Shown here: in pieces, positions 42,101-45,100 of the stretch
How positions within the stretch are numbered: position 1 is the stretch's first letter
Layout of the letters: each line of letters starts with the position of its first letter
NCBI GenBank assembly: GCA_013239625.1
Contig: MU053352.1
Location: 691,079 to 755,078 of the forward strand
Length of the DNA: 64,000 nt
Source of the DNA: Lama guanicoe
Taxonomy: Eukaryota
Direction of reading: 5' to 3'
The notes under the pieces: model-generated
Databases searched by the model: none
What the model saw: only the letters and a program-made list of their open reading frames with translations
What the model was told of the DNA's origin: nothing
Translations under genes and position numbers: made by a program

Positions 42101-45100
42101 GCCAAGTCCTCTCTGAAGCTTACCCCTGCTCCCCACCCCCCAACTGTGAACCACCCTCTAAGGGGCCTCCTGCTTCAACCTAGCCCCCCACCCCTCCCAG
42201 GGCATCTCCCCAGCCCCTTGCAGACAAGCCCCCGGCCCCACTATCACAGCCCCTCCCCTCCTGGCAGGGCCCCTCTGCCTGACAGGGCAGCCGCCACGCG
42301 TGTCTCAGGGCCAGGAGCCTGGCACCATCTCGCCTCAGTCTTGGAGCACTAGCTCCCCAGTCCCTTTTACACATAGGTAAACTGAGGATCAGAGAAGGTG
42401 GTGGCACACCTAAGGTCACTCAGCCGAGGTAGAACCTGTCTGAAAACCACCCCTCTCCCCATAACCCATCAGGACTTACGAGACTGCTGCTGCGGGCTGG
42501 GCCGGCAGAGGAGCGGCGGCGGGTGCTGAAGGCAGGCGGGTGGGCCACGGGGGTCCCAGCATCCTCGGCCGCCTGGAAGAGGGCCTCGGGGTCGGCAGCA
42601 GCCAGGAGCAGTTCACTAGGCTCCAGCTCAGGCTCAAGGTCAGGCACGAGTGGGACCCCCAGACGCAGGCTCAGCACCTCCACCTGCCTGCCCAGTGCAT
42701 CCAGCCGCCGGCTCAGTGCTGCTGTCTCCGCCCGCAGCTCTTCAGCTGCCCGGGCCACTGGCTCCACGGCCGAGGCGGCTGCCCCTGCTGCCTGGGTCAC
42801 TGCTGCCCGGCCTGCCTCAGCCACTGCCCGCAGCTCCTCCAACGCCTGGCCCAATCGCTCCTCCAGGGCTGCGGCCAGCTCAGACCCAGGCCCTGGTACC
42901 CCCGGCATGGTGCAGGCAGGGGCTCTATGGTGGGGTGACGATGGGGACAGTGGTAGGGACTGCTGCTTCTGGCTGGCAGTGTCAGAGTCTTTGCAGCTGG
43001 CCTGAGGGCGAAGGCAAGGGCAGTGGGCCTGCCCCGCCCCTGCTGGCCTCCCAGCCCGCCACCCGCCAGCTGGGGCTGTAGCCCAAATAGAAACCTATTC
43101 TGGGCTCCCTCTAGAGGGGGGAGTGGGGGAGGGGTGGCCTGCCCCAGCAGGCTGACCGCCAGGCCTGGCCTTGGCCCTGCAGAGACCACAGACCAGCAGT
43201 GCAGCAAGTCTGTAGAGGTTCTGATCACTGAGGCCAGGGTCCCATGCCCCACAGGTGGGGAAACTGAGGCAAGGAGAAAGGAATGGGTCCGTCTGGGCCA
43301 CTATGTACGTAAGCTGGGAGGATCCAATCTGTCATACACCAAGCCTGCACTGTTTGCCCTCATGCCATGCTGTTTCAGAAAGCCTTGAACAGATAGGGGA
43401 CATGGAGGCACAGAGAGGTGGGACTTTGAGCAGTCTGCTGTAACAAGTGTCTTGTCCTTGAGATAAATGTCCTCTGCCTGCCTCTGGGTGCTCAGGTCAA
43501 CCGCAGACTTCGAACAAGTGCATTCTGGGCACAGGATCTGCCTCCCCTTGGTTCTAGATGAAGAAGCTGGGGCAAGCTGGTGGTATTGGACGCAGGCTCA
43601 CTGTGGCACCTCCCATCCACTGCAAGGGCCTCAGCTGTCCTCTCCTCATTCCCTTGGCAGAGAGCAGTTAGGTCCTGCTCTGGGAGGGGAAGGGTGCTTT
43701 CTTGCTCCCACCCTCTCCCTGTCACCCCTGAGAAGGCCCGAAGCTGGCTCTAACCATCTCACCTCGGCTAAAGTCCCATTCAGTCCCTGGTGCACCGCAG
43801 AGGGCATTACCTGTGCAGCTGGGCAGCCCGCTGGGGATCCCTTCCCCTGCTGAGCTCCCAGCCAGCTGATCCCGGGCTCCAGAATGAATAATGGAAGGGT
43901 GTGATGTATTCAGTTCCCGTGGCACCTGCTAGGCTGCTGCCTCACCTGACTGACACCTCCTGCTTGTCCCCCCATCAATGCTTCTCCCACCTCCCCCCCA
44001 AGATATTGACGCAGATGGTAATCGCTAATCTCCAATCTCCTAACAGGCCGGGCTGATCTTGGATGAGCAGAAGAGCGGCTCTGCACCTTGAAGCCAAGGT
44101 CCAGGATGGGGTAGGCGCAGGGGCACTGGGGCTGCCACAGGAAGGGTGGGCAAGCCCTTACCACCCTCTCGGAGCCTCAGTTTTCTCATCTGTTCACAAG
44201 GAATGAACCAACCAATTTTGGAGTAAGGACTGGAGATCAGCATGTGGGAAGCTTAAAGCTGGTACAGAGTGAGCTTAGGACACATCCAGTGGCTGATGGG
44301 TGAGGGTCTGACCTTAGCTCTGCTACCAACTATCTGTGGACTGTGGGCAGCCACCTTCTCCCTCTGGCCTCCGTCTCCTCAGGTGTGCAGCAGGGGAAGG
44401 GCAGACAGAGGAGCCCTGCTAGCCCGACAGCCTGAAACGGTCTCTGTGAGGTTGGCAAGGGTGAAGCTGGTGGGTGAGGGAGGGCTCACCTTGACGCTGT
44501 AGCCTCCTCGGTTACCAGGGGCAGCATGGCTAAAGCTGGTGACGTGAGTGACACTGCCCAGCCGGGCCAGGGTCCCAGGACTGCTGATATGGGTGATGGT
44601 GCTCTTGCCCCCACTGCTGGTGCTCAGGAGGGTGGGGGGCGCCCGCAGACCCAGCGTCAGTTCTGGAGGTGGAGAAGGATGACTGTCAGGATCAGGTGGG
44701 GTGAGGGCCATGCAAGCCCAGGTTGACAGCACCCCTTGCTCCCAGCGTACCCCCTGGAGACACCCTGAGTCCCGGCCGCAGCACTTGTCCTATGTGCAGA
44801 GGTTGGCAGCTGCAGGCACTGGTCCCCAGCAATGGGGAGCAGGGAGGCCTACCTGCCCTTTGGTTGCCTGTGGGCAGCAGCACCCGGCCCGTGGAGGCCT
44901 GGCCCCGGCCATCCTTGATCTCAATGGTGAATGTGGTCTTCATACTGGCCCCTGGCTCAGCAGTGCCCACGGCCACGGGCAGCGGGGCACTGGGCTCCTC
45001 TGAGCGGGCCACAGCCCCCCCGGCTCTGTTTTCAAGGGGCCTGGCAGCCAAACCCCGCCCCCCAGGGCCCTCCTCCTGGGGGCAGCTCTGAAGCTGGGCC

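Follow-up and report, generated by a model that had tools for sequence, protein, structure and literature searches.

Exon 1A of the smoothelin gene of Lama guanicoe and a helical N-terminal domain probably shared with SMTNL2

The DNA under study is a stretch of 64,000 nucleotides from Lama guanicoe (contig MU053352.1 of assembly GCA_013239625.1, positions 691,079 to 755,078; hereafter the window), which carries the smoothelin gene SMTN on its minus strand. Inside this gene lies the first coding exon of short smoothelin, here called exon 1A. Our overall reading, which we consider probable, is that exon 1A belongs to the SMTN-A unit and encodes an ancient N-terminal helical domain. Judged by profile comparison, this domain, predicted as one long helix with an invariant proline and a four-heptad leucine zipper, also opens SMTNL2 and the "smoothelin, like" proteins of fish, ray and lamprey. 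For the exon, its coding nature and its homology taken jointly our confidence is high. The exon itself is already annotated (RefSeq, Ensembl/UniProt, complementary DNA (cDNA) collections) and treated in the literature as the first exon of SMTN-A; it is not a new transcript and by itself adds nothing new. What matters is the zipper-like domain common to short smoothelin and SMTNL2, which offers a testable idea of how paired single-CH proteins might bind or bundle actin.

The limits of exon 1A are listed in Table 1. Its ATG (42908-42906, minus-strand reading) stands in the context ...cctgcaccATGccg with A at -3 and C at +4, and the exon ends with ...agcagtctc|gtaagt, the last exon base being 42480 and the donor occupying 42479-42474. 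The open reading frame (ORF) that reads through the donor (42908..42420, 162 amino acids) contains no in-frame ATG further upstream of 42908, and no ATG in any frame was seen by eye between the TAG at 43097-43095 and 42908. The next exon, beginning at 41502, is preceded by ccccgcag, opens with ATGGAGCCA and ends before gtatgg; the join 42480->41502 is in phase 0. A preliminary description of this DNA, made from the letters alone, had given the same ATG, the 143 codons, the gtaagt donor and the phase with 41502, all of which hold on the minus strand, and had expected a protein of ~515 residues; the computed length is 513 amino acids with all downstream exons and 437 without the alternative ones. 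It had also called the exon intronic. This is correct for codons 1-112, which lie in an intron of the long isoform, but not for the last 31 codons, which are a constitutive exon. The canonical long form (P0078) reads ...GYSVK|AAEDAG and enters at the acceptor inside the 1A frame. Because this acceptor (42574-42573) is situated within the open frame, exon 1A does not stand by itself in the intron; it prolongs the constitutive exon in the upstream direction, 112 unique codons being fused to the 31 constitutive ones. It counts as the tenth exon of the gene model if one non-coding first exon is assumed. The Pfam CH and Smoothelin domains are encoded further downstream in the shared C-terminal half: the Pfam scan of the 143-residue peptide found no Smoothelin domain (PF12510), which belongs to the next two exons (residues 173-218 of P0011), and gave only sub-threshold coiled-coil noise.

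The 143-residue peptide was searched among longer proteins, with 141 matches found and 120 listed. Among those listed, 65 match it over 80% or more of its length with 77-100% identity, and all named full-cover matches come from placental mammals; the other 54 are long smoothelins of ~816-1,026 amino acids matching only the last 13-25% of the peptide. The top two, at 100% identity, are smoothelin X2 and X3 of Vicugna pacos. Many matches are proteins of 436-522 amino acids that begin with MPGVPGPG and continue into the shared C-terminal half. The exon 1A N-terminus is borne by mouse RefSeq isoforms d (NP_001412431.1, 522 amino acids) and f (NP_001412433.1, 446 amino acids, the same as Q9D7A0), by human B5MCI0 and B3KS32 (cDNA FLJ35365 fis, clone SKMUS2000873, 438 amino acids) and by the bovine "SMTN protein" AAI49155.1 (A6QP52, 513 amino acids). 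These short isoforms share the exon, the MPGVPGPG start and the splice to the MEPEP exon, and they are 83-97% identical to the window peptide; the window copy is the camelid orthologue with no structural difference. One further protein (P0063, 409 amino acids on a 1,651-nucleotide contig) carries the peptide joined to all downstream exons and is therefore derived from spliced RNA. The mouse RefSeq entries and the human and bovine cDNA products bear out the earlier surmise that the exon may exist as a database transcript.

In the literature the unique first exon is called the SMTN-A exon, and the SMTN-A part of the gene has already been equated with the layout of the SMTNL1/2 genes (Garg and Fisher 2023). 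A passage of PMC3050715 citing Rensen 2002 describes the SMTN-A promoter as intragenic, "within exon 10", and a passage of PMC3613403 citing Rensen 2006 places this promoter under the control of SRF/myocardin. The position of exon 1A is the intragenic position reported for that promoter: it lies inside SMTN, where it coincides with constitutive exon 10 or immediately precedes it, and it is spliced to the shared C-terminal exons (a join shown in proteins of other mammals). Exon 1A is most likely the first coding exon of the SMTN-A unit.

The constraint on exon 1A was judged from protein sequences of other species. In eight read-through ORFs of other species 121-137 of the 143 residues are identical to the window, without gaps. 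Over the 40 residues upstream of the ATG the three ORFs that reach that far have 33, 11 and 4 identical positions, and over the 20 residues past the donor the read-through ORFs have 6-8; protein-level conservation stops at the donor. The upstream sequence of macaque type matches a different frame of the window. Among 11 mammalian isoforms of 505-522 amino acids from four superorders, residues 1-111 show a mean pairwise identity of 0.869 and no gap columns, while the constitutive part from exon 10 has 0.860, exon 11 has 0.815 and the CH domain has 0.997. The GC content at the three codon positions is 0.89/0.53/0.70 in the unique part, 0.65/0.73/0.63 upstream and 0.63/0.64/0.60 downstream. By this pattern of conservation exon 1A is evidently protein-coding. 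A chance open frame in a GC-rich intron, which might be considered since GC is 0.69 here and long open frames are common in the window, has a negligible probability: it is refuted by the peptide matches, by the codon constraint and by the hit of an SMTNL2-only model among 1,420 ORFs (see below). In metagenome contigs 599 pattern matches were obtained, none of them encoding a relative.

Several features of the frame deserve mention beside this. The best-conserved unique stretch comprises residues 84-111 (42576-42659), with an identity of 0.948 in the 11 mammals, and overlaps the pyrimidine tract and probable branch site of the internal acceptor 42574-42573; two kinds of constraint may act on it, or it may serve as a short motif for binding. 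The motif HPP[AT]F..RR.S together with SRSNSLM, which closes the shared exon (42480-42572 and relatives), is kept from teleosts to mammals and looks like a site of basic-directed kinases. In cercopithecines (macaque-type P0285, P0295-P0297) the frame begins at an earlier ATG and is 76 residues longer (MPPSPTAP...), giving an annotated isoform of 514 amino acids; this extension is not conserved in the window.

The same data bear on the possibility that the region is mainly a long internal exon of long smoothelin, entered at the acceptor 43003-43002, and not a first exon. The frame is indeed open from this acceptor, Vicugna X2/X3 (1,019 and 1,071 amino acids) carry the domain internally, and so do the smoothelins of gar and of caecilian, the latter at 730-812 with ...K|MPGVSLQ at its start; for caecilian and gar the only models seen have the domain inside a long protein. 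This explanation is nevertheless very improbable, as the frame upstream of the ATG is unconserved (4-11 of 40 residues identical, with the macaque-type sequence matching another frame of the window) and MPGVPGPG is the N-terminus both of full-length cDNA products and of the curated RefSeq isoforms of mouse. First-exon and internal-exon uses may coexist, the long form including or skipping the domain by the choice of acceptor.

The homology of the domain was followed in a family set obtained with a full-library phmmer search using the bovine isoform of 513 amino acids (4,936 hits, the best 150 kept as representatives). Against these representatives residues 1-111 matched Anolis SMTN with an E-value of 1e-8 (1-110 against 1-105), fish "smoothelin, like" with 5e-6, tarpon SMTNL2 with 8e-6, sturgeon smoothelin with 2e-5 and primate SMTNL2 with 3e-4 (26-91 against 28-96), all matches being co-linear and N-terminal. 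The MPGV start is common to mammals, Anolis, sturgeon and teleosts. For a direct comparison of profiles with hhalign, 51 distinct mammalian 1A peptides (of 78) were set against 64 SMTNL2 N-termini, the latter taken from 120 mammalian proteins of which 80 have at least 430 amino acids and 72 of these are distinct, eight not starting with MEP, MES or MDP being dropped. The alignment (44-89 against 49-94) has a probability of 87%, a P-value of 3.7e-6 and a score of 37.1; the reversed control scored 17.6, and 200 column shuffles gave a mean of 11.6 with a standard deviation of 2.4 and a maximum of 20.3, none reaching 37.1. The preliminary description had pointed to a resemblance to the SMTNL2 N-terminus and proposed such a profile comparison; the match is significant, and the resemblance corresponds to the homologous helical part.

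A model of the domain made from 11 seeds finds 40 of the 150 representatives at an E-value of 5e-15 or better and none between that value and 1, with the reservation that 10 seed proteins match it by construction. The SMTNL2-only model, built from 21 representatives and 64 mammals, has the exon 1A ORF as its sole hit among the 1,420 six-frame ORFs of the window (E-value 4e-6, the next being 1.6) and finds non-mammal SMTN at 1e-8 to 2e-17 (scaled to a library of 1.84e9). A model of mammalian 1A peptides only finds Anolis SMTN end to end (1-111 against 1-106) with an E-value of 0.003. Like exon 1A, the SMTNL2 N-terminus combines an N-terminal position, a long helix with Pro50, the leucines 58/65/72/79 and the motif RQVE.L, and its first exon likewise ends in phase 0 just after a Ser-rich stretch. 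In the same genome SMTNL2 exon 1 comprises 130 codons and ends CAG|gtgagc in phase 0, the next exon starting with AGT; the exon 1 boundaries of SMTN and SMTNL2 are two alignment columns apart. The differences are also clear: SMTNL2 is only ~27-29% identical to the mammalian SMTN copy, which is alanine-rich and has Thr, not Asn, at position 62, and SMTNL2 is devoid of the Pfam Smoothelin domain. Taken together, the comparisons support the view that the exon 1A helix and the SMTNL2 N-terminus are one conserved ancient vertebrate domain. Garg and Fisher (2023), who compare the three genes, report "little homology" in the parts that precede the CH domains. Our literature searches brought up no published description of the N-terminal domain, the SMTNL2 passages of PMC8395060 not describing it, and the titles they listed held nothing about the start site; Pfam has no model for the domain.

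Going by protein names, lamprey, manta ray, coelacanth, bowfin, newt, caecilian and gar all possess the domain. It scores much more strongly in smoothelins and "smoothelin, like" proteins from outside the mammals (Anolis, sturgeon, teleosts, coelacanth, manta ray, lamprey), of which those that are SMTN share MPGV. SMTNL1 (CHASM) is a family member, as its CH domain and its C-terminal tail show, but is devoid of the N-terminal domain: none of the 40 domain-model hits among the 150 representatives is of SMTNL1 type, tenrec SMTNL1 being a protein so named that has no such domain. The other SMTNL1-type and invertebrate-looking representatives, which we typed ourselves by their tails, are also without it. 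The Anolis N-terminus, used as a query, found only two lizard proteins besides itself; birds, turtles, marsupials and monotremes were not among the proteins found.

In the guanaco assembly SMTNL2 exon 1 occurs at two places, L001 (C951) 1501-1893 and L002 (C4274) 1501-1890, the copies being 96.6% identical in DNA. In both, codon 33 is an in-frame TAG, the residue in the Vicugna pacos protein being Glu, and the second copy (L002) is also without a start ATG. The TAG at codon 33 could be a real premature stop, could belong to a duplicated pseudogene pair or could be an assembly matter.

The AlphaFold2 model of exon 1A, calculated with an alignment of 31 sequences, consists of one helix (residues 7-83), whose blocks of 10 residues have a mean predicted local distance difference test (pLDDT) score of 95-98 over residues 11-80; the remainder is of low confidence, and the overall mean pLDDT is 78.4. 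In the same alignment Pro50 and Leu58 are invariant, Glu16, Leu19, Ala22, Leu65, Leu72, Val76, Glu77 and Leu79 are at least 90% conserved, and positions 58, 65, 72 and 79 are occupied by Leu or Met in 31 of 31 sequences. Large hydrophobic residues at 19, 23, 26, 37, 51, 58, 65, 69, 72, 76 and 79 form an a/d heptad pattern. Asn occupies position 62 in 18 of the 31 sequences; mammalian SMTN has Thr there. A profile search of PDB gave weak matches only, the best being the zippers of C/EBP with E-values of ~0.01 on the last four heptads. The bZIP zippers of C/EBP alpha and beta (profile positions 67-95) are alike in their heptad leucines and in Asn at an "a" position; at E ~0.01 only, and with no basic region in the exon 1A coil, this is a likeness of kind and not kinship. 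The best score in the ESM Atlas was 0.82, which is below a meaningful level. Because of the heptad pattern, the zipper-like profile hits and the helix model, the helix is read as a chain-pairing coiled coil, and the chances that it dimerises two chains appear to us evenly balanced. Such a coil would hold the single CH domains of both chains close to each other, so that they could bind or bundle actin.

The exon 1A frame has to be compared with the classical smoothelin-A. In the abstract of van der Loop 1996 (PMC2120883) smoothelin was described as a 59-kD protein with an mRNA of ~1,500 bases and a cDNA whose ORF of 1,113 bp has a calculated mass of 40 kD, and the transfected cDNA gave a 59-kD product. 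The bovine ORF comprises 370 codons (41.4 kDa) when counted from the Met at the beginning of the next exon, and the bovine protein with exon 1A has 513 amino acids (56.1 kDa). The 370-codon ORF fits 1,113 bp; the classical ORF is therefore nested in the database ORF and starts one exon later than the exon 1A ORF, at 41502. The earlier statement that the unit differs from classical smoothelin-A stands for the reading frame but not for the unit, which in the literature is SMTN-A itself. Since the classical 40-kD ORF is nested in the 56-kDa ORF, the conserved domain may be missing from constructs designed on the short ORF, be it for antibodies, knock-outs or expression. The idea that the exon 1A extension explains the 59-kD band was considered, as the arithmetic fits (56.1 against 41.4 kDa), and was set aside because the original cDNA already gave 59 kD, which speaks against a need for the extension.

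The 143 codons could be an untranslated leader of classical smoothelin-A with the start at 41502, their conservation reflecting promoter or splice signals. The ORF of 1,113 bp fits such a start, the transfected cDNA gave the 59-kD protein (van der Loop 1996), and residues 84-111, with their identity of 0.948, overlap the pyrimidine tract of the internal acceptor. A leader is very improbable, however, as in mammals the 143 codons align without a gap and identity falls off abruptly right at the ATG and right at the donor, the GC content is periodic by codon position, the ATG has A at -3 and no ATG upstream of it, the MPGV start and the domain recur in lizard, sturgeon and teleost SMTN, and the domain is found in coding exon 1 of SMTNL2.

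The presumed promoter region upstream of exon 1A contains no TATA box in 800 nucleotides upstream of the ATG and no CpG island (observed/expected ratio 0.18-0.36). Three E-boxes are present in the ~800 nucleotides upstream of the ATG. The CAGCTG boxes and the ccaaatagaaa of the preliminary description are located where it put them (42999-42994, 43072-43067 and 43083-43093); its MEF2-like label has to be dropped, since no match to the MEF2 consensus YTAWWWWTAR within one mismatch exists between 42909 and 43700 on either strand. As to control by SRF/myocardin, the candidate element upstream of the ATG is the one-mismatch CArG-like box at 43103-43094. At the CArG-like/A-T spot the frames that read through in three other species encode RIGFYLG or RIDFYLG, from which the element would seem to be conserved as DNA. 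The only CpG-island-like stretch near the gene is 55000-55800 (GC 0.66-0.68, observed/expected ratio 0.70-0.73), presumably the promoter of the long isoform.

The preliminary description favoured a separate, possibly striated-muscle promoter driving exon 1A, which would be distinct from the smooth-muscle promoter of SMTN-A. One human cDNA does come from a clone named SKMUS2000873, two E-boxes are situated within 165 nucleotides of the ATG, and high expression in skeletal muscle is stated in the abstract of Garg and Fisher (2023) for SMTNL2, the paralogue with the same domain. We consider this version unlikely: muscle tissue contains vessels, a MEF2 site is missing from 42909-43700, the CArG-like box fits the SRF/myocardin control reported for the SMTN-A promoter in the citing passage, and in the literature the unique first exon is ascribed to SMTN-A (Garg and Fisher 2023).

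The sequence of events that follows from reading exon 1A as part of the SMTN-A unit would be this. Transcription would begin at an intragenic promoter free of a CpG island, a few hundred bases at most from the 3' end of the intron that precedes constitutive exon 10; both this promoter and its use in the guanaco are presumed from the DNA. Of 24 sequencing runs (10 studies) found for this animal, five recorded as RNA contain 0.45-0.47 of the words sampled from 41100-44700, shares that by themselves say nothing on the use of the exon. The transcript would run straight into exon 10, so that exon 1A is composed of 112 unique and 31 exon-10 codons, and would then be spliced 42480->41502, the spliced short form continuing into the shared C-terminal half with the Smoothelin and CH domains. 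The long isoform would normally skip the domain by using the internal acceptor 42574-42573.

Certain points weigh against this reading. Equating exon 1A with the mapped SMTN-A promoter depends on passages of two citing papers. Most of the listed isoforms are automatic predictions, a method which favours open frames, and no marsupial, monotreme or bird example was seen among the 120 listed peptide matches or in the search with the Anolis N-terminus. The extension is not needed for the 59-kD band because the transfected cDNA with the 1,113-bp ORF gave 59 kD, and some SMTN-A transcripts may start downstream of 42908. Direct similarity between mammalian 1A and SMTNL2 is weak (23-25 bits, E-value 1.9 when scaled to 1.84e9 proteins), and the link between them therefore relies on bridging sequences. 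Dimerisation is proposed from the sequence pattern and a model of the monomer.

A broader proposal can be made tentatively, and we regard it as more doubtful than the reading above. The domain might be an unrecognised vertebrate-wide dimerisation domain present from lamprey on and defining an ancestral "short smoothelin" gene (coil, linker, CH domain), which would have been preserved entire in SMTNL2 and in the inner unit of SMTN. In mammals the native short smoothelin would then be the 513-residue coil protein and not the product of the 371-codon ORF, and SMTN-A and SMTNL2 could self- or cross-pair.

Table 1. Positions in the window of exon 1A, its neighbours in the SMTN gene and the elements upstream of it
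Feature	Position	Strand	Basis or remark
SMTN gene	~55000 down to ~33000	minus	ORF list and gene model
Exon upstream of exon 1A in gene model	44663-44484	minus	gene model
CArG-like box CCAGAATAGG, one mismatch to CCW6GG	43094..43103	minus	adjoins tttctatttgg 43093-43083
In-frame TAG closing the frame upstream of the ATG	43095..43097	minus	sequence reading
A/T-rich ccaaatagaaa	43083-43093	plus	sequence reading
E-box CAGCTG	43067..43072	.	motif scan
GC box GGGGCGGGG, presumed promoter or leader	43032..43040	minus	motif scan
Upstream alternative acceptor ccctcag|GCC	43001..43003	minus	Vicugna X2/X3 read ...GYSVK|ASCKDSD...MPGVPGPG
E-box CAGCTG	42999-42994	.	overlaps upstream acceptor
Exon 1A coding part, short smoothelin, 143 codons	42480..42908	minus	ATG 42908-42906 to last base before donor
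Short-form-unique part, codons 1-112	42573..42908	minus	intronic in canonical long isoform
Predicted long helix, residues 7-83	42660..42890	minus	AlphaFold2; invariant Pro50; leucines 58/65/72/79
Zipper part of the predicted helix	42758-42660	minus	leucine heptads
Constitutive exon of long smoothelin, 31 codons	42480..42572	minus	acceptor AG 42574-42573, ...ccctcttccag|GCG, inside the 1A frame
Donor gtaagt, phase 0	42474..42479	minus	sequence reading
Next exon, 51 codons, 153 nucleotides	41350..41502	minus	opens with ATG of classical 1,113-bp smoothelin-A ORF
Following exon	41188..41263	minus	with end of previous exon encodes Pfam Smoothelin domain

Elsewhere in the gene, an alternative exon of 72 nucleotides (24 codons) at 45455-45526 is found in Vicugna X6 and X3 and not in X2. 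Of 52 residues aligned for the exon 41350-41502, 2-3 are not those of the Vicugna pacos RefSeq proteins (e.g. Leu for Val, TR.DK), exon 1A being 100% identical; this could reflect another individual or a near relative. Downstream of SMTN, at 17600-21500 on the minus strand, there are long ORFs including ...FWFGDLNFRIESYDLHFVKFAIDSEQLHQLWEKDQ and a Pro/Ser-rich frame of 400 amino acids, which may represent an inositol polyphosphate 5-phosphatase gene.

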